This document shows, piece by piece, positions 14,805-50,407 of a stretch of DNA of 64,000 nt; position 1 is the stretch's first letter, and each line of letters starts with the position of its first letter. Where the stretch lies: the NCBI RefSeq assembly GCF_046105845.1, contig NZ_CP151004.1; one strand, given 5' to 3'. Source of the stretch: Escherichia coli (GTDB taxonomy: Bacteria > Pseudomonadota > Gammaproteobacteria > Enterobacterales > Enterobacteriaceae). Under the pieces are notes generated by a model that was not told the DNA's origin, made no database searches, and saw nothing but the letters and a program-made list of their open reading frames with translations. Made by a program: the position numbers and the translations under genes.

Positions 14805-15832
14805 TGGGAAAGAGTAAGAAGAACCGCGCTGCGGCGACGAAACAGATCCAGCATAAAAACCAGACTTCAGCCGAAGCATTCAGCTTCGGTGATCCCGTTC
14901 CTGTTCTGGACCGCCGCGAACTGCTGGACTATGTGGAATGCGTACAGATGGACCGTTGGTATGAGCCACCAGTGAGTTTCGACGGCCTGGCGCGAACCTT
15001 CCGCGCCGCCGTACACCACAGCTCACCGATTGCAGTAAAGTGCAACATTCTGACCAGCACCTATATCCCTCACCCGTTGCTCAGCCAGCAGGCTTTTTCA
15101 CGTTTTGTGCAGGACTATCTGGTATTTGGTAATGCCTACCTGGAGAAACGCACGAACCGCTTCGGTGAAGTTATCGCCCTTGAACCTGCCCTGGCAAAAT
15201 ACACTCGACGCGGATTAGACCTGGATACCTACTGGTTTGTGCAATACGGTATGGCAACCCAGCCGTATCAGTTCACGAAAGGCAGCATCTTTCATCTGAT
15301 GGAACCGGATATTAATCAGGAGATCTACGGCCTGCCTGGCTATCTTTCTGCTATTCCATCCGCTCTGCTCAACGAGTCCGCCACGCTGTTCCGCCGGAAG
15401 TATTACATTAACGGCAGTCATGCAGGCTTCATCATGTACATGACCGATGCCGCGCAAAACCAGGAAGATGTGAACAACCTCCGCAACGCGATGAAAAGCG
15501 CCAAAGGTCCGGGCAATTTCCGCAACCTGTTTATGTACTCGCCTAACGGCAAAAAAGATGGCATTCAGATTATCCCGTTATCGGAAGTCGCGGCGAAGGA
15601 TGAGTTTTTGAATATCAAGAACGTGAGCCGGGACGACATGATGGCAGCACACCGTGTGCCGCCACAAATGATGGGGATTATGCCTAATAATGTTGGGGGA
15701 TTTGGGGATGTGGAGAAGGCGAGCTTGGTCTTTGTTCGTAATGAACTGATTCCTTTACAAAAAAGACTGATGGAAGTAAATGTCTGGCTCAATGAAGAAG
15801 TGATTGTATTCAATAGATACATTTTAGAGTAA
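14804..15832 (+). CDS. Q: Portal protein (P2 gpQ-like)
   Basis: 343-aa ORF; ATG at 14804 overlaps the P stop (TGATG); ORF track start 14801 is a TTG. Confidence 0.9.
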   Translation: MGKSKKNRAAATKQIQHKNQTSAEAFSFGDPVPVLDRRELLDYVECVQMDRWYEPPVSFDGLARTFRAAVHHSSPIAVKCNILTSTYIPHPLLSQQAFSRFVQDYLVFGNAYLEKRTNRFGEVIALEPALAKYTRRGLDLDTYWFVQYGMATQPYQFTKGSIFHLMEPDINQEIYGLPGYLSAIPSALLNESATLFRRKYYINGSHAGFIMYMTDAAQNQEDVNNLRNAMKSAKGPGNFRNLFMYSPNGKKDGIQIIPLSEVAAKDEFLNIKNVSRDDMMAAHRVPPQMMGIMPNNVGGFGDVEKASLVFVRNELIPLQKRLMEVNVWLNEEVIVFNRYILE

Positions 15833-37666: not shown

Positions 37667-38485
37667 TTACCCCCTGAATCCTGCCGGGATCTGGCTGTAG
37701 TCCACGTTGTCGTAACTGGCTTTGAAGTACGGGTCCTCGCGTCTGGCTGCAGATACCGCAGGAACTTCCCAGGATTCTTCGAAATGACGATCCGGACCAA
37801 AGAACGTGACAGCCTGTTTCACAAATTGTGTGCCGCTGTTACCCATCGCAGATACCCAGCCCGCGTAGCGTTTCACACCTTCCAGCATGGTTTCGGGTTT
37901 TACCCCCTCATTCAAACGGGCTTTCCAGGCTTTGAAGGCTGCAGATTTTGAATTGCCACCAGCACGTTTGGGGTATGCCAGCCATGCCTGCTCAAACTCC
38001 GGAGAGTATTCCGGTCGGTTTGAACGAACTCGCACAGACTCATCAGCAGATGCACCAACAGCTATTGGTTCATTGACTGGTTCTTTGACTGGTTCAAAAG
38101 AGTGACTGGTTCTGGGTGAATCTCCTGCACCACCCCCTGGTGCAACTCCTGCACTACCTGGTGAATTTGCTGCACCAGATAGTGAATTATTTGCACTACC
38201 CCCTAGTGAATCTCCTGCACCATCAAGATGAAGGAGATAGATATTACTTGAGTTACCTTTTTCACCTTTCCGGGTGACTTTTTTTACCAGCCCGGAATCA
38301 CAAAGGGCCGCAATATGATTCATCACAGAACGTTTGCTAATCTCGCACTGGTCAGCAATATGCTGGTAGCTGGGCCAGCACTCACCCTGATCGCTGGCAT
38401 TATCAGCCAGCTTGATCAGAACCAGTTTTCGCAATGGATTACCCACTCGAATTTTCATCGCTTTAACCATCAGCTCCATACTCAT
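37667..38485 (-). CDS. Replication initiator (lambda O-like) with N-terminal winged HTH and DnaT-like C-terminal tail
   Basis: Start at 38485 after a GGAGG RBS; low-complexity middle encoded by iterons; C-terminus ...DYSQIPAGFRG matches host DnaT ...[10 protein letters not shown]. Confidence 0.7.
   Translation of the reverse strand: MSMELMVKAMKIRVGNPLRKLVLIKLADNASDQGECWPSYQHIADQCEISKRSVMNHIAALCDSGLVKKVTRKGEKGNSSNIYLLHLDGAGDSLGGSANNSLSGAANSPGSAGVAPGGGAGDSPRTSHSFEPVKEPVNEPIAVGASADESVRVRSNRPEYSPEFEQAWLAYPKRAGGNSKSAAFKAWKARLNEGVKPETMLEGVKRYAGWVSAMGNSGTQFVKQAVTFFGPDRHFEESWEVPAVSAARREDPYFKASYDNVDYSQIPAGFRG
38040..38230. repeat. Iteron-like direct repeats inside the initiator gene (putative replication origin)
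   Basis: Repeated TTGACTGGTTC units and ~21-bp units ending in ...CCTGCAC or TTTGCAC (e.g. CCCTGGTGCAACTCCTGCAC, TACCTGGTGAATTTGCTGCAC, CAGATAGTGAATTATTTGCAC, CCCTAGTGAATCTCCTGCAC). Confidence 0.6.
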
Positions 38486-38718
38486 GCTGCACCTCCGAGA
38501 TGCTTCATGTTTTTTCCGGAGCAAAAGGCTATAAGCGGCATACTGATGCGGTAATTACGGCCCAGCGGTTCACAAATCACCTTCTGACATTCACGGTCAA
38601 CCAGGCTAACACGTAGAACATGCCCTGCAGGCGTGGTGTACCACTGCCCAACTGTAGGAATTGATGTTTTTTTACGCTGAAGCAAACGGCAAATATTGAG
38701 GATCAACGGATTAAGCAT
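38482..38718 (-). CDS. Hypothetical protein
   Basis: 78-aa ORF translationally coupled to the initiator. Confidence 0.4.
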   Translation of the reverse strand: MLNPLILNICRLLQRKKTSIPTVGQWYTTPAGHVLRVSLVDRECQKVICEPLGRNYRISMPLIAFCSGKNMKHLGGAA

Positions 38719-39547
38719 GACGATGCCCTCCGCTGATATTCAGGAGACGGTGAATATGAAAATTAGCCTTATCCGCCAGACGAATACGTTCAGCCTGCAA
38801 GTTAAGAAGGGTTTCTACCAAAACCTGATGCGCCTGCGGATCCGAAAGAGTTACCTTGCGCAGAGCACGTAGTGCAGTTGTTACATAACTGAGTTTATGT
38901 AAGTCTTCATCATTCAGACGAGTGAGGGCTGGGACAGTAGCCATGATGGCAGCCTCCGATAACAGTGAATTACCTTCACCACCGGAAACGCCAATTTCGC
39001 TGGTGGTGAACTGAACGGGGTTGGCGTAACCGGCGTTATCGGAAACCGGCGCACCTTTCGGTGCCCCCGTCCAGCCCACCATAATTTGGGTGTGCACAGA
39101 CACAGACGATAAAAAAGACGCTGGCGCGTCATATATCGCCGATAACATTTCCAGGACGCCAATCCCGTCACCCGCTTTATAAGGTGCCTGAACAGTGTAA
39201 CGTCCCGGAATGGCAGAATCAATGTGCTGGTGGTCCTTCACACTCAACAAAATCACGCCTGAATTTCCACAAAGGACTAAAGCACTCATGCGGGTAGTCT
39301 TTGCGAAGATAGATAACGCGCTGTGTTTCTGGTTCCCAACGAATAACATGGACATAAAGCCCTCTTCCGTCACGAAACCAGCGGTTAAGTTCCCGCACAA
39401 CTCGCCCCCCACAGTCAGGTAAAGTTCTCTGTGGTTACTTACAGCCAGGTGATTTGGTAATCTGCATTCATGCCGTAACAACAGGTGTTCAGCGACACTG
39501 ACCACCAGCTGTTGCGACAAACGGTTATTTGCCGTTAAACTGTTCAT
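38711..39547 (-). CDS. Hypothetical phage early protein
   Basis: 278-aa ORF in the cro-proximal early-right operon. Confidence 0.5.
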   Translation of the reverse strand: MNSLTANNRLSQQLVVSVAEHLLLRHECRLPNHLAVSNHRELYLTVGGELCGNLTAGFVTEEGFMSMLFVGNQKHSALSIFAKTTRMSALVLCGNSGVILLSVKDHQHIDSAIPGRYTVQAPYKAGDGIGVLEMLSAIYDAPASFLSSVSVHTQIMVGWTGAPKGAPVSDNAGYANPVQFTTSEIGVSGGEGNSLLSEAAIMATVPALTRLNDEDLHKLSYVTTALRALRKVTLSDPQAHQVLVETLLNLQAERIRLADKANFHIHRLLNISGGHRHA

Positions 39548-40107
39548 GCGTTAGTTTCTCCACAGACACAAAACGCCACGACGCCCGGAGCTGCACACTC
39601 GCGGGCGTCACTCTTTTCTGGAGCGCAAAAGATTTTGTAGACCAGTGCTGCATGCTCTTGGAGCTTCGAAATTGACAGATACAACTCATCATTAATTGCT
39701 GTCTGCTCGTGTGGCTCCACGACCCCATCTTCGATTGCCGAACGAATCTGCTTTGAGTAATTCCCGATCTGTTCGATGACTTCCAGCAGGCGCTGGTTTA
39801 TATCGGCGTTCTCTACTTCCTCAATTTCAGGAAGCGATACGAACACCCCACCAGCAGACTGTGCGACAGCATCCGCAATGTAGTGAGTGTCAGCCGCGCG
39901 CTGTAAAACCATTGCCCATCCCAGCGGGAAAATCTGATCGCCATCGGCACGAAGGCGGTTAAATAATGCGTTCTCTGTTACATCCAGCCAGTCAGCTGCT
40001 TCAGCGTAACCACCCGGCAACGCTGCGATAGTTTTTCTGACAGCTTTCACGTACCACTCAGGCTGTTTTTCTACTTTCCAGTGATACTTACCCACGGTTA
40101 GCCTCAT
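39544..40107 (-). CDS. Hypothetical early regulator (YdaT/CII-like position)
   Basis: 187-aa ORF immediately downstream of cro; family not confirmed. Confidence 0.45.
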   Translation of the reverse strand: MRLTVGKYHWKVEKQPEWYVKAVRKTIAALPGGYAEAADWLDVTENALFNRLRADGDQIFPLGWAMVLQRAADTHYIADAVAQSAGGVFVSLPEIEEVENADINQRLLEVIEQIGNYSKQIRSAIEDGVVEPHEQTAINDELYLSISKLQEHAALVYKIFCAPEKSDARECAAPGVVAFCVCGETNA

Positions 40108-40138
40108 CGTTCTGTGGTTAAAAATTGAAGGTGTTCTG

Positions 40139-40339
40139 TTAATCTTTCGGATAGATATCCGGTCTTAAGTCAGATTTCGTAATTGCACCTGACGTGCATT
40201 GCTCAAGTTTTTTCGCCAGCACAAAACTGGCTTTTTTATAACCATTGAAAACCAGCCGTAAGTAGCCAGGTGTTGAGCCAACTTTTCCGGCCAACTCGCC
40301 CTGCTGTTCTTTGGTTAAAGAGTCCCAATACGCTTTCAT
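40139..40339 (-). CDS. Cro-like HTH repressor (YdaS-type)
   Basis: From MKAYWDSLTKEQQGELAGKVGSTPGYLRLVFNGYKKASFVLAKKLEQ with GGAGG RBS; divergent from cI. Confidence 0.6.
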   Translation of the reverse strand: MKAYWDSLTKEQQGELAGKVGSTPGYLRLVFNGYKKASFVLAKKLEQCTSGAITKSDLRPDIYPKD

Positions 40340-40429
40340 ACAATATGTACCTCCAGTATACATATTACATGATTGAAATGAACCTTCAAGATACTTGTAC
40401 CTTATCGGTACAAAGGTTTTAATTTCGTT
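40340..40429. promoter_or_regulatory. cro-cI intergenic switch with palindromic operator-like sites
   Basis: Imperfect palindromes ATATGTAC-ctccag-TATACATAT and CTTGTACC-ttatc-GGTACAAAG sharing a TGTAC core. Confidence 0.5.
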
Positions 40430-41104
40430 ATGAAAACAATCCATGACATCCGGCGGTCTAACGCCAGAAAACTGAGAGATGGTGTTGGCGGAAATTCATC
40501 CTTTGCCACCATGATTGATCGCGAGCCAACCCAAACCAGCAGGTTTATGGGGGATGGCGCTACTAAAAATATCGGTGACAGCATGGCACGGCACATCGAA
40601 AAATGTTTCGACCTGCCTGTCGGATGGCTTGATCAAGAACACCAGACAACGAACATCACAAAAAAACCTGATGTTTCAATCACTAACAAACAAATAACGT
40701 TAGTCCCTGTCATATCATGGGTACAGGCCGGAGCATGGAAAGAAGTTGGCTATTCTGAGGTTGATTTGAGCACAGCAGAAACGTATCCCTGCCCTGTACC
40801 CTGTGGCGAAATGACTTATATCTTGCGGGTGATTGGTGATTCAATGATTGATGAGTACCGCCCTGGAGACATGATTTTTGTTGATCCCGAAGTCCCTGCC
40901 TGCCACGGTGACGACGTTATTGCATTGATGCACGATACAGGCGAAACCACCTTCAAGCGATTGATAGAAGATGGAACACAGCGTTATCTCAAAGCATTAA
41001 ACCCAAACTGGCCTGAGCCTTACATTAAGATTAACGGTAATTGCTCTATAATTGGTACAGTGATTTTCTCGGGAAAACCAAGAAGATACACAATAAAGGC
41101 CTAA
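40430..41104 (+). CDS. CI-type repressor (HTH plus S24 LexA-like peptidase domain)
   Basis: C-terminal ...VISWVQAGAWKEV...LRVIGDSMIDEYRPGDMIFVDPE...TFKRLIEDGTQRYLKALNPNWPEPY... closely parallels the lambda CI C-domain with Ser and Lys catalytic pair. Confidence 0.85.
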   Translation: MKTIHDIRRSNARKLRDGVGGNSSFATMIDREPTQTSRFMGDGATKNIGDSMARHIEKCFDLPVGWLDQEHQTTNITKKPDVSITNKQITLVPVISWVQAGAWKEVGYSEVDLSTAETYPCPVPCGEMTYILRVIGDSMIDEYRPGDMIFVDPEVPACHGDDVIALMHDTGETTFKRLIEDGTQRYLKALNPNWPEPYIKINGNCSIIGTVIFSGKPRRYTIKA

Positions 41105-41116
41105 TCAATATTTATG

Positions 41117-41140
41117 AACCTGCTTCGGCAGGTTTTTTTA
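41117..41140 (+). terminator. Rho-independent terminator after cI
   Basis: AACCTGC-ttcg-GCAGGTT followed by TTTTTT. Confidence 0.65.
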
Positions 41141-41589
41141 TACTTGACAATGTACCTATGAGATACATAATGTATCCAAAAGAAACATGAGGCAGGCAAG
41201 ATTCAAACAAAATTTGGTTGTAACACGGCGTATGGCACATGCGTCGTTAGCGGTCTGGGGACGTTAAAGGGGACAATCCACTCCTTGCTAGGGCAAACAA
41301 ACCAGGTAGCCGGAATGTGCAAGTCAATGATGATGCTGATAAGACGCCTAACCAGCGTGGCGATCCGGTTTGACGCCTGGGAAGAGACCAGGGTGCAACG
41401 ATGAGGGCATTTATGGAGCCGCGACAAAGTGTGGTGCCGTAACTGGCTAAGTGCTCTCAGCGTTGTGGTCATCCGCGAAATGGCGCGGCGGTAAGTATGG
41501 CTGGGTTACTCTTTCCCCGTTGAGGACACCGGATTGTCAGGTTGACCATACGCCTGAGTGACAACCCCACCACAACAGCCACTGCTTTG

Positions 41590-41635
41590 GCGGTACCAGT
41601 TTGTACACTTGCTTCCGGCTGGTACCGCTCTTTTT
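41590..41635 (+). terminator. Rho-independent terminator-like hairpin in the cI / early-left intergenic region
   Basis: GCGGTACCAG (41590-41599), 19-nt loop, CTGGTACCGC (41619-41628), then TCTTTTT. Confidence 0.5.
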
Positions 41636-41724
41636 ACAAAACAGAGAAGAGCATCACCGGACGACGGGCTCATAACCCAATCCATCCGGGCGGCTGCCAC
41701 CGCAGGTGTTCTTCTCTGTTTTGT
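41636..41724. repeat. Perfect 15-bp inverted repeat with 59-bp spacer
   Basis: ACAAAACAGAGAAGA (41636-41650) and TCTTCTCTGTTTTGT (41710-41724). Confidence 0.6.
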
Positions 41725-41772
41725 GGAGAAACCAACCGACCTTGCAGGGTCGATATGATGAGGAGCAGCAAA

Positions 41773-42135
41773 ATGGCTAGCGAACGCAGTACTGATGTGC
41801 AGGCATTTATCGGGGAGCTGGACGGCGGCGTATTTGAAACCAAAATCGGCGCAGTTCTCAGTGAAGTCGCTTCCGGTGTGATGAACACGAAAACCAAAGG
41901 TAAGGTCTCACTCAACCTGGAAATCGAACCATTTGATGAGAACCGTGTGAAAATCAAACACAAACTCTCATATGTTCGCCCGACTAACCGCGGGAAAATT
42001 TCCGAAGAAGACACCACCGAAACGCCGATGTATGTCAATCGCGGTGGTCGCCTGACTATTCTGCAGGAAGACCAGGGACAATTACTGACTCTTGCCGGTG
42101 AACCTGACGGAAAACTACGCGCAGCAGGTCATTAA
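41773..42135 (+). CDS. YfdP-like early protein (hypothetical)
   Basis: Start at 41773 after an AGGAG RBS, 120 aa; upstream part of ORF track 41542..42135 spans the terminator hairpin. Confidence 0.55.
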   Translation: MASERSTDVQAFIGELDGGVFETKIGAVLSEVASGVMNTKTKGKVSLNLEIEPFDENRVKIKHKLSYVRPTNRGKISEEDTTETPMYVNRGGRLTILQEDQGQLLTLAGEPDGKLRAAGH

Positions 42136-42200
42136 TATCGTTCTTAATTAACTGATTATTTATCTCATCACTGAATATCTTTATATAGTGAGGACTTATT

Positions 42201-43025
42201 ATGTCTCAGAACTTAGACGCAACCGCAATTAATCAAATCCATGCCCTTATTTCTGCTCAGGGTGTTAATGAAATTATCAGTAAGATTGGTGCCGATGCTG
42301 TGGTATTGCCTGAGAATTTCCGCATTCATGATCTGGAAAAATTTAATTTAAATCGCTTCCGTTTCCGTGGTGCGCTTTCCACTGCCAGCATCGATGACTT
42401 TACCCGTTATTCTAAAGATCTTGCAGATGAAGGCACCCGCTGCTTTATCGATGCTGATAATATGCGTGCCGTCAGTGTACTTAACCTGGGTACTATTGAT
42501 GAACCAGGTCACGCAGATAACACCGCCACTCTCAAACTGAAAAAGACAGCACCGTTCTCTGCCCTGTTGTCTGTTAACGGCGAGCGTAACTCCCAGAAGT
42601 CACTGGCAGAATGGATTGAAGACTGGGCCGACTACCTTGTGGGCTTTGATGCTAATGGTGACGCTATTCAGGCAACAAAAGCGGCTGCGGCAGTCCGTAA
42701 AATCACGATTGAAGCAAACCAGACCGCTGATTTTGAAGATAATGACTTCAGCGGCAAACGCTCCCTGATGGAATCTGTCGAAGCGAAGACCAAAGACATT
42801 ATGCCAGTGGCATTTGAAATTAAATGCGTTCCGTTTGAAGGTCTGAAAGAACGTCCGTTTAAATTACGCCTCAGCATTATCACTGGCGATCGTCCTGTAC
42901 TGGTTCTGCGCATTATTCAGCTGGAAGCGGTGCAGGAAGATATGGCTAACGAATTTCGTGATCTGCTTGTTGAGAAATTCAAAGACAGCAAAGTAGAAAC
43001 CTTTATTGGTACTTTCACCGCCTGA
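42201..43025 (+). CDS. YfdQ-like protein (DUF2303-type)
   Basis: 274-aa ORF; family assignment by recollection of CPS-53 synteny yfdP-Q-R-S-T. Confidence 0.6.
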
Positions 43026-43152
43026 TTTCATTACTGCAAATGCCCCTGCGGGGGCATTTATGGAAACGTAATTAACTCAATAATCACCGGATGGTGAGGG
43101 CTTCCTTTTACCCAAACTCAGCGCGGTGCAGCGCATATACGTGGAGAACAAA

Positions 43153-43689
43153 ATGTCATTTATTAAAACTTTTTCCGGGAAGCATTTTTATTATGACAAG
43201 ATAAATAAAGACGACATCGTGATTAACGATATCGCGGTTTCCCTTTCAAATATCTGCCGCTTTGCCGGTCATCTTTCTCACTTCTACAGTGTCGCCCAAC
43301 ATGCGGTGCTTTGCAGCCAGCTGGTGCCGCAGGAATTTGCTTTTGAAGCGTTAATGCATGATGCAACAGAAGCGTATTGCCAGGATATTCCCGCTCCACT
43401 GAAACGCCTTCTTCCTGACTATAAACGGATGGAAGAAAAAATTGACGCCGTAATCCGTGAGAAATACGGGTTACCCCCAGTTATGAGTACGCCCGTGAAA
43501 TATGCCGATCTTATCATGCTGGCAACCGAACGCCGCGATCTCGGGCTTGATGATGGCTCTTTCTGGCCTGTACTGGAAGGCATCCCGGCAACAGAGATGT
43601 TCAACGTGATTCCACTGGCACCTAGCCATGCCTACGGGATGTTTATGGAACGTTTTAACGAGTTATCGGAGTTACGCAAATGCGCATGA
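43153..43689 (+). CDS. HD-domain phosphohydrolase (YfdR-like)
   Basis: ATG at 43153 after a GGAGA RBS; HD-type metal-binding motifs ...SVAQHAVLCSQ...ALMHDATEAY. Confidence 0.75.
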   Translation: MSFIKTFSGKHFYYDKINKDDIVINDIAVSLSNICRFAGHLSHFYSVAQHAVLCSQLVPQEFAFEALMHDATEAYCQDIPAPLKRLLPDYKRMEEKIDAVIREKYGLPPVMSTPVKYADLIMLATERRDLGLDDGSFWPVLEGIPATEMFNVIPLAPSHAYGMFMERFNELSELRKCA

Positions 43690-44042
43690 ATGTTTTCGAA
43701 ATGGAAGGGTTTCTTCGCGGTAAATGTGTACCGCGAGATCTGAAAGTGAACGAAACAAATGCTGAGTACCTGGTACGTAAATTCGACGCGCTTGAAGCTA
43801 AATGTGCGGCACTGGAAAACAAAATAATACCAGTGTCAGCTGAACTGCCACCAGCAAATGAAAGTGTTCTGTTATTTGATGCTAACGGAGAAGGCTGGCT
43901 GATTGGCTGGCGTTCTCTCTGGTACACCTGGGGACAAAAAGAAACCGGAGAATGGCAGTGGACATTTCAGGTCGGGGACCTTGAAAACTTCAATATCACT
44001 CACTGGGCAGTAATGCCAAAAGCGCCGGAGGCTGGAGCATAA
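43680..44042 (+). CDS. YfdS-like hypothetical protein
   Basis: 120-aa ORF overlapping the previous stop; synteny. Confidence 0.55.
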   Translation: MRMNVFEMEGFLRGKCVPRDLKVNETNAEYLVRKFDALEAKCAALENKIIPVSAELPPANESVLLFDANGEGWLIGWRSLWYTWGQKETGEWQWTFQVGDLENFNITHWAVMPKAPEAGA

Positions 44043-44662
44043 TGACCACATTTACCAATAAAGAACTGATTAAAGAAATCAAAGAACGAATCAGCAGCCT
44101 AGAGGTTCGAGACGATATTGAGCGCCGTGCTTATGAAATTGCTCTGGCATCGCTAGAAGAGGAGCCGGTGGCATGGCTGCATTCAGAAAATGGCTTAGGT
44201 ATTCCGGCAATAACGAGGAGTAAAAACATTGCTGACAGTTGGTTATCAAAGGGCTGGTATGTTCAGCCGCTATATATAGCCAAGCCAGTGCCGGTGGTGC
44301 CAGATGCTCGTCCGTCTTTAAATAATGGCATAGTCGGCTTTGATGAAGGCTGGAACGCCTGCCGCGCCGCCATGCTTAATGGTGCCGAACCTGTAAGCCA
44401 GACTTACAAGTTGAACGAGCTGTCGGGCAACTCTCCGGTAACTCCGGATGGTTGGATAAGCTGTAGTGAGCGAATGCCGAACGATAAACAGTATGTTTGG
44501 TGTTGGGGTAAGTCTTACGGCTGGACTGAGTACGATACCTTCGAAGGGTATTACGATTGTTCGAGAAACAAATGGTGGGCAGTTACTGACAATGGGGAAG
44601 AACCGGCATCGAAAGTAACCCACTGGATGCCGCTACCGGAGCCGCCGCAGGAGGTGAAGTAA
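44042..44662 (+). CDS. DUF551-domain protein (YfdT-like)
   Basis: C-terminal ...DGWISCSERMP......THWMPLPEPP typical of DUF551. Confidence 0.7.
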   Translation: MTTFTNKELIKEIKERISSLEVRDDIERRAYEIALASLEEEPVAWLHSENGLGIPAITRSKNIADSWLSKGWYVQPLYIAKPVPVVPDARPSLNNGIVGFDEGWNACRAAMLNGAEPVSQTYKLNELSGNSPVTPDGWISCSERMPNDKQYVWCWGKSYGWTEYDTFEGYYDCSRNKWWAVTDNGEEPASKVTHWMPLPEPPQEVK

Positions 44663-44856
44663 TGAACAACTTAATGACAACTAAACAAGTCGCCGATTTC
44701 TGTGGTGTTTCAGTATCGACAGTTCTTCGCTGGAACAGCGTAAACAGGAGAACTGGCCAGAAATACAGGCCTGACTTTCCAGATCCTGATATTAAATCCT
44801 GCCCAAATAAATGGGCATCACACAAGATTTACAGATTTGCGGGAGTGATTGATTAA
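44662..44856 (+). CDS. AlpA/Xis-like excisionase HTH protein
   Basis: MNNLMTTKQVADFCGVSVSTVLRWNS..., MerR-type HTH, int-proximal. Confidence 0.6.
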   Translation: MNNLMTTKQVADFCGVSVSTVLRWNSVNRRTGQKYRPDFPDPDIKSCPNKWASHKIYRFAGVID

Positions 44857-45138
44857 TATGTATTAGCTTAGATGTGAGCTGACACATCTATGATTAGATG
44901 CCAAACCAAATCTGAGCGTCCACTCTTTAACAAGAGCGGACGTTACCAATGACCATATGACATGAATCGATAAGATCAAAACATTATCGCCAAGAAATGT
45001 CATACCATTGATACAAATAAAATTGATTACCCCCTTACTCTTGTTGAAAAGTTAGTCGTAGAGTACCTATCGCAATGTAATCAGCTTTAATCATCTGAAA
45101 ATTACTCCTTAAAAATTAGCTTTTATATACTGAACAAA

Positions 45139-45858
45139 TTAAATCTCTGTTTCTTTTCCTGTTCGGCTCAACCAATACTCCATTGTTTGAGTATGAATCT
45201 TTTCAGCGTATATTTTATCAATTAATTTATCTCGTTTTTCTTTAATGACTTTACGCAGTGAATCATATAACATAAAAAAACGTTCATCATCTTCCTCATT
45301 ATTACCATAATTTATTTGATTGAGTTCTGAAAAAATATGATAGCACCTTTTTTTCTTGGTCCCCGGCAATATTAAAACCAAGCCACATTGATCATATTCA
45401 AATTCACCTTTATGGGCAGCAAAGTTATGTCTAACATTCATAATAGAATCATGTAAATCTCTGTATTTTTCTGGCACATGCTTTCTCTGCAATGTGAATC
45501 GACGCCCTTTCGCCTCTGTAAAACACTTACCGTAAGTAACAACTTTTGATATAAATAAAGACTTTAATATTAGATTCTTTTCTAAATCAGGATAAATAAA
45601 GTGTTGTTCTCTATTAATGTTATTACAAATGTTTTTTATTATATTCTCCCAACCAATAACATTCCGAAGATCTTTATCCAGCAACTGTAAGGCCACATAT
45701 TGTTCTACAAAGCGGCCTTTTAAAGGTATTCGTGGTAATATTACACCTTTCTGCTTATAAACTCTTTCTATCGTATTATCTGGATATTGGATCTTCCTTA
45801 TTTCTATTCCGTCTTCTTCTGATACCCTTACTAATGGTTCATTTTTTAACTTTGACAT
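45139..45858 (-). CDS. AT-rich hypothetical protein between xis and int (candidate accessory or defence gene)
   Basis: 239-aa ORF in a very AT-rich stretch with GAGGG RBS and ATG at 45856-45858; no motif I recognise. Confidence 0.6.
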   Translation of the reverse strand: MSKLKNEPLVRVSEEDGIEIRKIQYPDNTIERVYKQKGVILPRIPLKGRFVEQYVALQLLDKDLRNVIGWENIIKNICNNINREQHFIYPDLEKNLILKSLFISKVVTYGKCFTEAKGRRFTLQRKHVPEKYRDLHDSIMNVRHNFAAHKGEFEYDQCGLVLILPGTKKKRCYHIFSELNQINYGNNEEDDERFFMLYDSLRKVIKEKRDKLIDKIYAEKIHTQTMEYWLSRTGKETEI

Positions 45859-46143
45859 GTTAACCCTCTTAAATAAAAAACTAACTTTATCCAGATAGTG
45901 TCCGTTAAGAAGTTTTCGTTACAACTAAGTTTCTAGGTAAATCATGAATCAACCTATAGTATCAAAAACATTTGGTGGTAAACATCTGCATTTATCAAAT
46001 AGCAGGAGCGATTTAGGGGCATAGGGATAGTGATGATATCTATACCCGTGCCCTCTTATGTCAACACAATGGCGTAAACTTAACGCTCACATCTCGCTCA
46101 AAGTGTGCTAGGAGATTTGGTTATGTTCAGGTGATACAAACCG

Positions 46144-47367
46144 TCAGTTTGAATCAGAGATAGTACAATTAACAATCGATTCAACCCTCTTCCACCATGC
46201 CAGGTAAGCTTTACGCTGTTCTTCTAGATAATCGCTCTTATCATAAACTTGCCATACCCCTGGCAGCTTATGACCAAGCATAATTTCTGCGATATGAGGC
46301 GCAGTAAGATCAGAAAAATTTGTTCGTGCTGTCCGTCTCAAGTCATGAAGAGACCAATGAGGGAATTGATATCCTAAACGCCGCCACGCGTACTGCATTA
46401 AATTGTAAGGCAGCGACTGTAATGATGTCCTACCGACTGGCTCCCTGCTTCCTTCCTTAGTAAAAAGCATATCGGAACCGTTGTTCATAGAGATAACGTA
46501 TTTTATAAGCTCTTCAACCGGTTCAATAATGGGCCGCTTTAGCGGTTCGCCTGTTATGTCCCCTGTCTTATGTCGTTCAGGTGGTACAGTCCATACCTTA
46601 TTTATGAAATCAAAATCACCCACCCTAGCAGTAATTAGCTCCGAACTACGGCAACCAAAATGCAGTAATAGTTTAATGAAGGCCCGGTATTTGGGAACCA
46701 TTCTAGAGCCATCGATCGCAGCATAAAGAATTTTAATTTCATCGTGTGTCAGAAACCGTTTCTTCTGACCTTTACGGATATCCATATCTTTACCCGTGAT
46801 ATCCGACAGCGGGCGAGTTTCAATAAGCTTTCTCTTATACGCCCAGACATGGGCCTGCTTTGCGTTAATTAGCAATCGGTCTGCTATTGCTGGAGTCTTA
46901 GTGCTAAGAGGCTCCAGGACTTCTAACCAATCATGCAATGTAGCTGCATCGTGAGGGATATTCCCGATTTTAGAGAACAGGTGCAGCTCAAACGAGCGGA
47001 GTATCTGTTCAGAACCCTTTTTATTTTTTACACAATATGCTTCATACCAGGCACGGATCACAGACTCTACCGTCATGGCTTCAGTAGCTTTTCGTTTTTC
47101 AGCCTGCTTGACCAATCGTGGATTACGGTTTGACTCGAGTTCACCACGGAGACGGATAACTTCTTCTCTGGCCTCTTTTAATCCAGTTGCCGGGTAAGTT
47201 CCGATATCAAGACGCTCACCTTTCCCTGCCCATTGATAACGATATTGAAACACTACGCGACCTTTCGGTGATACTCTGACAGACAGACCATCACGATCGG
47301 ATTTAACCAAAACCTTATCACGTTCCTTTCCAACGACTGAACGCAACCACGCATCAGACAGCGCCAT
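46144..47367 (-). CDS. int: Tyrosine integrase (P4-like, arm-binding N-domain)
   Basis: 407 aa; N-terminal ...LSVRVSPKGRVVFQYRYQWAGKGERLDIGTYPATGLKEAREE; C-terminal ...HDLRRTARTNF...IMLGHKLPGVWQVYDKSDY. Confidence 0.9.
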   Translation of the reverse strand: MALSDAWLRSVVGKERDKVLVKSDRDGLSVRVSPKGRVVFQYRYQWAGKGERLDIGTYPATGLKEAREEVIRLRGELESNRNPRLVKQAEKRKATEAMTVESVIRAWYEAYCVKNKKGSEQILRSFELHLFSKIGNIPHDAATLHDWLEVLEPLSTKTPAIADRLLINAKQAHVWAYKRKLIETRPLSDITGKDMDIRKGQKKRFLTHDEIKILYAAIDGSRMVPKYRAFIKLLLHFGCRSSELITARVGDFDFINKVWTVPPERHKTGDITGEPLKRPIIEPVEELIKYVISMNNGSDMLFTKEGSREPVGRTSLQSLPYNLMQYAWRRLGYQFPHWSLHDLRRTARTNFSDLTAPHIAEIMLGHKLPGVWQVYDKSDYLEEQRKAYLAWWKRVESIVNCTISDSN

Positions 47368-47376
47368 TACTCACCT

Positions 47377-47433
47377 TGTACAAATCGCAAAACACCTCTG
47401 CTGCTTTGTACATTATGTACAAGCATATGTACA
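47377..47433. repeat. Cluster of four TGTACA hexamers upstream of int (possible arm or operator sites)
   Basis: TGTACA at 47377, 47407, 47416 and 47428. Confidence 0.4.
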
Positions 47434-47587
47434 GATTTTTGATGAAAGCAACCTGATCGATTTAAAGTTACATGAAAGAATTTTCAATTAAAGAAGCCAC
47501 ATAACTATATGTATTTAAATGAGTTATATAACCAGACCTCAATTAACTGAAAGGATTTTGAAAGAGTAAAAGAGCTTTAATTTGGGA

Positions 47588-47662
47588 TTAATTATTGGGG
47601 TGAGAAATAATGGCAAAAGTGCGGCGCTTCGCCACCTCTTGCAAATAAGGAGACAACGTCAT
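47588..47662 (-). pseudogene. prfC: prfC (peptide chain release factor 3) 5' fragment, truncated at the prophage junction
   Basis: Minus-strand ATG at 47660-47662; [22 protein letters not shown] then NN-stop; the host reading ...HPDAGKTT is lost at ~47597. Confidence 0.8.
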
Positions 47663-47752
47663 AATTCTTTCTTCTTGAGTAAGCGGCATCGCGCCGCGCT
47701 TGTTGAAAACGAAAAATTGCGGCTATTTTACCCATCAACGGGGGGGAGGCAA

Positions 47753-48430
47753 TCAGTGTTTACACAGGAGCTGCTCCAGTTCGTGCAACGAAGAAACTGT
47801 CCAGGTGGGCGCGATGCCTTCTGGTTGCTCGCGATTGTGCGCATTCAGCCAGCAGGTCGCAAGCCCGGCGTTGATGCCACCGAGAATATCGGACTCGGCA
47901 GTGTCGCCAACCATCAGCACGCGTGAACGGTCAGGATTGCCCGCCTGTTCCAGCGCATAATCGAAAATTTTCTTATTCGGTTTGGCAACGCCAACTTCTT
48001 CGGAAATCACCAGCAAATCGAAATAATCACGCAGGCCCGTGCGTTCCAGACGCACTTGCTGCAAAGCGCTAAAGCCGTTGGTGATGATGCCAATTTTAGC
48101 ATTGCCACGAATGGCGTTAAGCAGAGAAACCGCGCCCGGCAGCGGCGTACAGATTTCCGCCATCGCATTAATAAAGGCTTCGTTGAGTTTACCCGGCTCG
48201 ACGTTCAGCCGTTCGGCCCAGCTCTCAAACCGCCCGTGCTGAAGCTGTAATGAAGTGATCGCGCCGTTTTGATAATCCACCCACAGTGGCTTGTTAACGG
48301 CCTGATAGTCCTGAAAATCTTCAGCGGTAAAGGTGACGCTGTAATCAAGAAACATCCGCTGCAGGCCGGTGAATGAGTCAAAGGTAAACAGCGTTTCATC
48401 GGCATCAAAGAAAATCCAGTCCCACTTCAT
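47753..48430 (-). CDS. yjjG: Pyrimidine 5'-nucleotidase YjjG (HAD family)
   Basis: 225 aa, [15 protein letters not shown]... Confidence 0.9.
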
Positions 48431-48444
48431 TATTCCACCTTGTC

Positions 48445-48891
48445 TTACATACTGATTGGCAACGCCATGATGATGGCGTCTTCGCGACCGTCCGTGGTGG
48501 GGTAGTAATTGCGGCGAATCGTCGCCTCGTTAAAGCCTAAACTTTCGTACAGTGCAATGGCGGCAGCGTTTGAGGCACGGACTTCCAGCCATAGCGTCGC
48601 CACGCCGCGTTTTTCCAGTTCGTCGATCAGATGTTCCAGCAGCGCCCTTCCCAATCCCTGACGCTGATAGTCAGGATCGACCGCAATATTGAACAATGTA
48701 GCTTCATCCAGCACCACTTGCGTAATCGCAAACGCCGCCATTTTGCCGTTTTGCGTTAACTGAAAGTTGAGATAACGCTCGCCCTGGTTGCTGGCAAAGG
48801 TTTTTTCACTCCACGGAAAGGCGTGGGCGCGTTGTTCAATGTGGTAAGCCGCTGGTAAATCAGTCGTTTCGAGGGAAGAAATCGTGTTCAT
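48445..48891 (-). CDS. rimI: Ribosomal protein S18 alanine N-acetyltransferase
   Basis: 148 aa, GNAT motifs ...[13 protein letters not shown]... Confidence 0.9.
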
Positions 48892-49273
48892 ATGTGCAAA
48901 TTTGTTGCCATAACGCGGCGCGTGCCGTTGGGTTTGCCCGTAATTCGGTGAGCGCCGGTGATGCCACCTGAGCGCCTTCCAGTGATAGCGGTTCGTCAGT
49001 ACCCAACCGCCAGCTGTTGCAGCGACTGCCTTGCGGCAGCATCGCGATTTTTTCTGGCGTCAGTTGCAGCACTTGATCGGGGCTGACGGTTAATGCGCGC
49101 AGAACATCGCTCACTAAAGGATCAGTCAGGGCGGGAAGATCGTTTGCCACCATCACCAGACGGACGTGTGCCGGGATCGCAATGGCAATCTCCCCCTGCA
49201 ACGCGCCAGGGCGACGCAGCGACCACTGGGTAATGCCCAGTTGCTGTAACTGCCAGTCTCGTCGGGATGTCAT
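48860..49273 (-). CDS. holD: DNA polymerase III psi subunit
   Basis: 137 aa, MTSRRDWQLQQLGITQW...; overlaps rimI start as in E. coli. Confidence 0.9.
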   Translation of the reverse strand: MTSRRDWQLQQLGITQWSLRRPGALQGEIAIAIPAHVRLVMVANDLPALTDPLVSDVLRALTVSPDQVLQLTPEKIAMLPQGSRCNSWRLGTDEPLSLEGAQVASPALTELRANPTARAALWQQICTYEHDFFPRND

Positions 49274-49375
49274 AGCGAATCGCTCCTGTTGTCAGGGGCG
49301 CAAATATAGCAAATTCGTCGATACCGCGCCAACATATGGCTATAATCGCCGCCAGTATCAATTGAGGAGCATTCC

Positions 49376-50407
49376 ATGTCTGCATTTACCCCGGCAAGTG
49401 AAGTCTTGCTGCGTCACAGTGATGATTTCGAACAAAGCCGTATTCTTTTTGCCGGAGACTTACAGGATGACCTGCCCGCGCGTTTAGATACCGCGGCCAG
49501 CCGTGCTCATACCCAGCAATTCCACCATTGGCAGGTGTTAAGCCGCCAGATGGGGGATAACGCCCGTTTTAGTCTGGTCGCCACGGCGAATGATGTCGCA
49601 GATTGCGATACGTTGATTTACTACTGGCCGAAGAACAAACCGGAAGCCCAGTTCCAGTTGATGAATTTACTTTCTCTGCTGCCGGTGGGCACGGATATTT
49701 TTGTCGTTGGCGAGAACCGCAGCGGCGTGCGCAGCGCCGAACAGATGCTGGCAGATTATGCGCCGTTGAATAAAGTCGACAGCGCCCGTCGCTGTGGCCT
49801 CTATTTTGGTCGTCTGGAAAAACAGCCGGTGTTTGATGCCGATAAATTCTGGGGCGAATACAGCGTCGATGGCCTGACGGTCAAAACGCTGCCGGGCGTG
49901 TTTAGCCGCGACGGTCTGGATGTCGGTAGCCAGTTGCTGCTCTCGACGTTAACTCCGCACACGAAAGGTAAAGTGCTGGATGTCGGCTGTGGCGCGGGCG
50001 TGCTTTCTGTTGCCTTTGCGCGCCATTCGCCGAAAATTCGTCTCACTCTGTGCGATGTCTCTGCGCCAGCGGTAGAAGCCAGCCGCGCAACACTTGCCGC
50101 CAACGGTGTTGAAGGTGAAGTCTTTGCCAGTAACGTCTTTTCCGAGGTGAAAGGTCGTTTTGATATGATCATCTCCAACCCGCCGTTCCACGATGGGATG
50201 CAAACCAGCCTCGATGCGGCGCAAACGCTGATTCGCGGCGCGGTGCGTCATCTTAATAGCGGCGGCGAGCTGCGAATTGTAGCGAACGCCTTCCTGCCTT
50301 ATCCGGACGTGCTGGATGAGACATTTGGCTTCCACGAAGTGATCGCGCAAACCGGGCGCTTCAAGGTGTATCGCGCCATTATGACCCGCCAGGCGAAGAA
50401 AGGTTAA
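49376..50407 (+). CDS. rsmC: 16S rRNA m2G1207 methyltransferase
   Basis: 343 aa, ...[12 protein letters not shown]...IISNPPFH... Confidence 0.9.

Follow-up and report, generated by a model that had tools for sequence, protein, structure and literature searches.

The pentamer TGTAC recurs at three places in one stretch of Escherichia coli DNA: in two palindromes between the divergent cro and cI genes of a prophage, in the loop of a hairpin beyond cI, and, four times over, just upstream of the integrase gene int. The question that this locus raises is whether all these sequences are read by one protein or whether the likeness conceals separate systems. The original prediction opted for the former, proposing that a single repressor, cI, binds operators with this core at oR, at the int promoter, and at oL, which was equated with the hairpin; on that model, int would be under the direct control of immunity. 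It also named a core frequency no higher than chance as an outcome that would speak against it.

The window, that is, the whole stretch of 64,000 nucleotides that was analyzed, is E. coli chromosome with a lambdoid prophage of the SfV / cdtI / 2H10 immunity type inside the 5' end of prfC. Over positions 39500-42200, it is 99.4% identical to Escherichia phage 2H10 and 97-98% identical to Ayreon, cdtI, SfV, and a set of Stx2c-converting phages. The genes and signals on which the argument turns are these:

40139..40339, minus strand: cro, 66 aa, HTH_3/YdaS-like (open reading frame list; Pfam and PHROG transcriptional repressor matches; labeled cro in SfV and cdtI)
40430..41104, plus strand: cI repressor, 224 aa, with an N-terminal HTH and an S24 self-cleaving C-terminal domain (Pfam, PDB, and PHROG matches)
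41116..41135, plus strand: terminator after cI (terminator scan; also annotated in Ayreon and SfV)
44662..44856, plus strand: xis, excisionase, 64 aa, the final gene of the pL-direction block (phrog_1553, E 6.4e-36; weak HTH_17 and MerR matches)
46144..47367, minus strand: int, tyrosine integrase with an N-terminal arm-DNA-binding domain (Phage_integrase, E 6e-17; Arm-DNA-bind_3, PF13356, residues 3-90, E 1.9e-16)

The cI product combines, as a repressor should, an HTH DNA-binding domain with a cleavage and oligomerization domain of the LexA/S24 type: it matches Peptidase_S24 (PF00717; E 1.5e-26) and, among PDB structures, the C-terminal domain of lambda CI (E 1.8e-9), whereas its N-terminal residues 1-76 match the repressor 5d50 (E 0.0018); its PHROG matches are phrog_4 (transcriptional repressor) and phrog_12107. 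On the 3' side of cro lie a CII-family gene (39544-40107) and then an Ash-family gene. The former, on the minus strand, matches Phage_CP76 (CII regulatory protein; E 4e-14); the SfIV paper describes cII as missing from SfV and SfIV, and reports the cI and Cro of SfIV to be identical to those of SfV, with nothing further on them. The Ash-family ORF (278 aa, 38711-39547), in a place where SfV carries the label 'immunity region', contains two minus-strand Rfam matches above the gathering score, namely, C4 antisense RNA (38999-39086, 82.8 bits) and isrK (39111-39187, 55.4 bits), a hint that the early-right operon has a second layer of control, an antisense one resembling P1 immI. The Rfam scan, which extended over 38000-50000, yielded no match at the operators, the hairpin, or the int arm. 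Between xis and int, a 239-aa ORF on the minus strand (45139-45858) has no Pfam match and falls in phrog_8440, of unknown function; it is kept in 2H10, with a bigger gene in its place in Ayreon and cdtI, and may mark a cargo (moron) slot beside int.

All the sequences on which the original prediction was built are present in the window: ATATGTA..TACATAT at 40343-40365, CTTGTACC..GGTACAAAG at 40394-40415, TGTACA at 41602-41607, within the loop of the 41589-41629 hairpin, and TGTACA at 47377, 47407, 47416, and 47428. In plain counts over the 64-kb window, the core is found at chance frequency (88 TGTAC against 83.2 expected, and 12 TGTACA against 11.6 expected), and, without enrichment, the shared TGTAC or TGTACA core was dropped as evidence for common regulation. 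What did stand up in the motif search is the arrangement of the core, which is not random either in the dyads or in the int-upstream cluster. The dyad TGTA-N9-TACA is found five times, with 0.59 expected, and three of the five, all beginning with TGTACCT on the plus strand, lie within 820 bp around cI (40346-40362, 40396-40412, and 41151-41167), while four of the 12 TGTACA hexamers of the window are packed into 57 bp (47377-47433). Each of 200 first-order Markov simulations of the window contained at most two TGTA-N9-TACA dyads per 900-bp span and at most two TGTACA per 60-bp span. The remaining two dyads, one in the 3' end of a coding ORF (15805-15821) and the other in the early-left gene block (44392-44408), have poor inner half-site bases and are treated as chance occurrences. 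A position matrix built from nine operator sites (from the window, SfV, and Hafnia phage yong2) gives the three dyads around cI 18.6-22.8 bits and everything else in the window 14.1 bits or less; after these, the immunity region scores highest at 41171-41187 (13.9 bits) and 40379-40395 (13.0 bits), which rank in the top six of the window.

Two of the three strong dyads lie between cro and cI, along with the promoter hexamers that can be read there:

40346..40362, no strand: OR1, putative operator TGTACCTCCAGTATACA (TGTA-N9-TACA match; 18.6 bits; starts 84-85 bp before the cI ATG in five phages)
40362..40389, minus strand: predicted pR for cro, -35 TTGAAG (40389-40384), 16-bp spacer, -10 TAATAT (40367-40362), read from the sequence
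40379..40395, no strand: OR2, weak candidate operator TGAACCTTCAAGATACT (13.0 bits, sixth best in the window)
40396..40412, no strand: OR3, putative operator TGTACCTTATCGGTACA, a perfect dyad (TGTA-N9-TACA match; 21.8 bits; starts 34-35 bp before the cI ATG in five phages)
40395..40423, plus strand: predicted pRM, TTGTAC (40395-40400), 17-bp spacer, TTTAAT (40418-40423), read from the sequence, with hexamers and spacing also found in yong2

The operator consensus for cI, and presumably for Cro, is probably the 17-bp dyad TGTACC-N5-GGTACA, the right half being degenerate in OR1 and in the oL site OL1 (TATACA and GATACA), and the palindromes between cro and cI are very probably the operators of the cI/Cro switch, as had been proposed. 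They overlap the predicted promoters: OR1 extends over the cro Shine-Dalgarno sequence, the predicted start of pR, and the final base of its -10, and OR3 lies across the spacer and the -35 of the predicted pRM, its left half doubling as the -35 itself. Both pR hexamers are conserved in yong2. The predicted pR matches the consensus at 8 of 12 positions and pRM at 8 or fewer, below the threshold of 9 used in the promoter scan, and for this reason the scan does not list them. The -10 of the predicted pRM ends 6 nt before the cI ATG and, therefore, the cI mRNA is probably leaderless, as at lambda pRM. A further palindrome in the middle of the spacer, TTGAA-N7-TTCAA (40373-40389), was considered as an operator and dropped, its left half being lost in yong2.

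The weak OR2 candidate abuts OR3 and overlaps the -35 of the predicted pR. The Pseudomonas phages carry TGTACCGTCAAGGTTCT abutting their OR3, in the position equivalent to OR2, which supports this candidate; the conservation of OR2 may stem solely from the pR -35 that it contains. If cI and Cro bind these dyads, occupancy of OR1, on the -10 edge, the start site, and the cro ribosome-binding site, would shut off pR, and occupancy of OR3 would either provide for autoregulation of cI or serve as the Cro site for shutting cI off; OR2 and its weak counterpart OL2 on the other side of cI would probably contribute cooperative binding. A literature search that included the exact site sequences and TGTACC/GGTACA operators returned no published binding data for these proteins or sites.

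The relatives of this prophage allow the dyads to be followed over a broad range of divergence. The search of viral contigs with cI, which gave 418 stretches, recovered only copies 99-100% identical and is useful for natural variants rather than for divergence. Among 52 close IMG/VR loci (cI 99-100% identical, cI start locatable), substitutions in the dyads are nearly all in the central bases, with a single half-site change, in two loci. Divergent relatives came from a tblastn search of a phage collection with the cI N-domain, namely, Hafnia phage yong2 (72% identity in this domain), Edwardsiella phage EPP-1 (60%), and the Pseudomonas phages CF3a (51%) and D14E (43%). All four have kept the recognition helix IDREPTQxSR, yong2 with A in place of P, and all four carry dyads of the same family that start 84-85 and 34-35 bp before the cI ATG, in DNA that is otherwise unrelated. 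Thus, in five phages, the sequence of the site follows the recognition helix, and where the helix is different, in the H-19B-type cI of Stx1a phages, the cI-cro spacer contains no TGTAC. This is the comparative pattern that would be expected of immunity-specific operators. A close described counterpart is the immunity region of SfV (U82619), which has the same cI and cro at about 97% DNA identity; the SfV genome contains exactly three TGTA-N9-TACA dyads, two at oR and one at oL, at the same places as here and with one or two central bases different. The GenBank record labels the cro-cI spacer 'putative operator region', and so marks a region rather than single sites, with oL unmarked.

On the far side of cI, the third strong dyad falls within a near-consensus promoter and not in the hairpin to which oL had been assigned:

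41144..41171, plus strand: pL promoter, TTGACA, 16-bp spacer, CATAAT, 11 of 12 consensus positions (promoter scan; annotated in Ayreon)
41151..41167, no strand: OL1, putative operator TGTACCTATGAGATACA, within the pL spacer (TGTA-N9-TACA match; 22.8 bits, the best in the window; conserved in yong2, EPP-1, and SfV)
41171..41187, no strand: OL2, weak candidate operator TGTATCCAAAAGAAACA over the predicted pL start (13.9 bits)
41589..41636, plus strand: intrinsic terminator in the pL leader, 13-bp stem, 15-nt loop with TGTACA, then UCUUUUU (fold -24.7 kcal/mol; annotated in SfV as a rho-independent terminator)

The OL1 dyad, which the original prediction overlooked, lies right in the spacer of pL and is, therefore, the real oL, where it would act as the cI operator controlling the pL side. 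Dyads thus lie on both sides of cI, with OL1 inside the pL spacer and OR1 and OR3 over the predicted pR and pRM hexamers. For the weaker OL2, a clear second oL dyad 20 bp after OL1 in EPP-1 lends support, and its left half reads TGTACC in natural variants and in yong2. The hairpin, by contrast, is a terminator: it is nearly invariant in the relatives that carry it, its best score with the operator matrix is -1.5 bits, and the loop TGTACA, which lacks a second half-site at operator spacing, is a chance hexamer. The leader in which the hairpin lies, about 580 nt (41172-41754) between pL and the first plausible ORF (41755), lacks consistent coding annotation in the relatives, has a fold z-score of -2.3, and ends with the strong terminator (41589-41636); no N gene is evident within it. 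In yong2, the equivalent place is taken by a tRNA-Gly(ccc) (L009 3472-3545).

With both operator regions mapped, one can ask whether the cro-cI palindromes act as RNA structures, one as a hairpin that masks the ribosome-binding site of cro and the other as a weak terminator ahead of cI, rather than as protein-binding sites. The span of OR1 over the Shine-Dalgarno sequence would accommodate this, as would the marking of 40395-40413 as terminator-like in the terminator scan. However, the predicted start of pR lies inside OR1, so that the hairpin would be incompletely transcribed; the two halves of OR1 and of OL1 are not complementary (TGTACC against TATACA or GATACA), a form that is conserved across genera; OL1 sits in an untranscribed promoter spacer; and the stem of OR3 includes just three G-C pairs. 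We regard a role as RNA as exceedingly improbable and retain the reading of the palindromes as operators.

Read in this way, the region closely resembles the CI/Cro switch of lambda, with divergent cro and cI, 17-bp dyads over pR, pRM, and pL, a repressor that joins an N-terminal HTH to a lambda-CI-like S24 domain, a cI mRNA that is probably leaderless, and, possibly, three oR sites. It differs from lambda in the half-site (here TGTACC-N5-GGTACA), in having two strong oR sites 50 bp apart with the weak middle candidate abutting OR3, in having one strong and one weak oL site, in placing the perfect dyad over pRM instead of pR, and in lacking an N gene, with the untranslated leader of about 580 nt and its strong terminator after pL.

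The four hexamers upstream of int belong to a different context, the attachment site of the prophage:

47377..47433, no strand: four TGTACA sites (47377, 47407, 47416, 47428) in the int-proximal att arm (motif scan; conservation)
47598..47611, no strand: att core GGGTGAGAAATAAT, the crossover region, to which the 'duplication due to insertion' of Stx phage records maps
47588..47662, minus strand: truncated 5' end of host prfC, then NN and a stop, pointing towards int (translation; matches the Salmonella prfC annotation)

The target of integration is the 5' end of prfC. Positions 47662-47597, read as the reverse complement, encode the prfC N-terminus, the host genes yjjG, rimI, and holD flank the prophage end beyond int, and phage and host sequences diverge beyond the att core, whose annotated duplication in the Stx phage records is 14 bp; the attP of the phage brings along a substitute for the prfC 5' end. 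The SXT/R391 elements integrate at the same end of the same gene (PMC5812530), the element here being a phage rather than an ICE. Only the int-proximal arm lies within the window, which contains a single copy of the 14-bp core and nothing that matches the int-distal arm of 2H10, the other end of the prophage thus being absent; the second arm was read from phage attP records.

The four sites are located 165-221 bp from the att core and 10-66 bp upstream of the int ATG, and their TGTACA cores are unchanged in six phages while the flanking bases vary. In the attP of 2H10, cdtI, and Ayreon, TGTACA is found at -221, -191, -182, and -170 and again at +82, +94, +122, and +191 from the core, with the unit ATTATGTACAAkCATATGTACA on both arms. 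These sites do not have the geometry of operators, given that TGTA-N9-TACA is not formed by any pair of them and that the matrix gives them 5.6 bits at most. Moreover, they accompany the integrase and not the repressor. The Stx1a phage LC727899, with Int 96.8% and Xis 96.9% identical to those studied here but an H-19B-type cI that is only 32% identical, keeps four TGTACA at each prophage end and has a TGTAC-free operator region. In Acinetobacter phage ABMM1, whose Int is 45% identical and whose repressor is unrelated, the 290 bp upstream of int contain five TGTACA, likewise with a spacing of 12 bp within pairs, and the 45.7 kb examined contain zero TGTA-N9-TACA. Conversely, SfV has the same cI and cro but another integrase; its attP is located at a tRNA gene, its int-xis pair forms part of the pL operon, and its att/int region contains zero TGTACA and no such cluster. 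Given the presence of the sites on both arms, their travel with the int module, and their non-operator geometry, they belong, therefore, to the recombination module and not to the immunity module.

These observations largely dispose of the proposal that cI acts at all three places. In its favor, TGTAC does occur in each of them, and the immunity region and the int module do travel together in 2H10, cdtI, Ayreon, and the Stx2c phages. Against it, no 17-bp dyad exists at int, and the scores at int (5.6 bits) and at the hairpin (-1.5 bits) compare poorly with the 18.6-22.8 bits of the dyads around cI; the hexamers recur on the int-distal arm of attP, persist beside H-19B-type or unrelated repressors, and are missing from the att/int region of SfV despite the same cI; and the true oL is at 41151-41167. 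That a single repressor reads the core at oR, the hairpin, and the int promoter is, accordingly, a very slim prospect, and the claim that the int-upstream sites are cI operators is not sustained.

Most likely, the TGTACA cluster consists of Int arm-type sites. Int contains an arm-binding domain, the motif is present on both attP arms, and it is linked to the int module. As with the lambda arm-type sites (P1/P2, P'1-3), a short motif is repeated on both arms of attP at 80-220 bp from the core, adjacent copies are spaced by about one helical turn, and the cognate integrase has an N-terminal arm-binding domain; here, however, that domain is of the P4/DUF4102 type (PF13356), and the motif has a palindromic hexamer core, in four copies per arm. 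Arm-type sites are normally asymmetric, so that the palindromic TGTACA is unusual in this role. In the proposed mechanism, the N-terminal domain of Int or, less likely, Xis would bind the TGTACA sites in building the recombination complex.

Whether the hexamers are instead binding sites of Xis, the recombination directionality factor, deserves consideration. Sites 2-4 are spaced by 9 and 12 bp, about one helical turn, like the arrays of Xis and TorI, and in KplE1 the TorI sites overlap the int promoter (PMC2951348). Xis (phrog_1553) also travels with Int in the Stx1a phage, and a small HTH-like gene adjoins the att region of ABMM1; tblastn, however, detected no Xis homologue at that position in ABMM1, where the motif is nonetheless kept. 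Furthermore, TGTACA is equally numerous on both attP arms. In lambda, Xis sites are confined to one arm and Int arm sites are found on both. Finally, the dedicated arm-binding domain of Int needs sites of this kind. Xis as the cognate protein thus seems an unlikely but not negligible option, and we proceed with Int.

The location of the arm sites bears on the expression of int itself. The int and xis genes are not co-transcribed, given that xis is on the plus strand (44662-44856) and int on the minus strand (46144-47367). Furthermore, int abuts the att arm and is read away from att, a geometry by which its promoter would lie in the arm. The promoter scan of the int arm found no convincing sigma-70 promoter, and the candidates CATAAT (47417-47412) and TTGCTT-18-TATGCT, with poor partner hexamers, are not asserted. 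With the arm sites between the att core and the int start, and with int divergent from xis and lacking another promoter region, occupancy of these sites would probably repress int. This would amount to negative autoregulation of int, by analogy with KplE1, in which the occupation of attL by IntS and TorI silences the int promoter (PMC2951348). There, too, int abuts att and is read away from it, with xis transcribed separately from the opposite strand; in keeping with this likeness, the arm sites of the present prophage lie 10-66 bp upstream of the int ATG. Unlike in KplE1, the target is the 5' end of prfC, not a tRNA gene. As an alternative source of int transcription, a leftover host prfC promoter-like site (TTGCCT 47752.. 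/ TAAAAT ..47725) and a 24-codon prfC' fragment aim straight at int (47588-47760, minus strand). The stretch between this promoter-like site and int has no terminator-like site, so that transcription from the prfC promoter may run on into int in the lysogen.

Taken together, these findings make it likely that the TGTAC sequences of this prophage represent two independent lambdoid systems, the cI operators and the integrase arm sites, plus one chance hexamer. The likeness between the operator and arm motifs is a coincidence of 4-5 bp. There is only a faint chance that, through the shared GTAC core, cI or Cro binds the arm sites, or Int the operators, with low affinity; if so, immunity would be coupled directly to int expression or excision in the phages that combine both modules.

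Both systems are of well-known kinds, a lambda-type CI/Cro switch and the attP of a heterobivalent integrase, and the current understanding of phage biology is unchanged by these results. What is new is narrower: the operator consensus of the SfV/cdtI/2H10 immunity type, stated explicitly and mapped site by site with an unannotated oL among the sites, an operator geometry conserved across four genera, and TGTACA as the probable arm motif of a prfC-targeting integrase lineage. Prophages of E. coli and Shigella commonly carry this immunity type, as the 418 viral-contig stretches indicate, and its carriers include phages that convey Stx2c, cytolethal distending toxin, and O-antigen serotype conversion. 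For these phages, the operator consensus and the promoter map could be used for the prediction of cross-immunity, for the design of induction reporters, and for the correct annotation of oL and oR, whereas the recognition of TGTACA clusters as probable att arm sites would help delimit the attP of prfC-targeting prophages and predicts autoregulation of their integrases.
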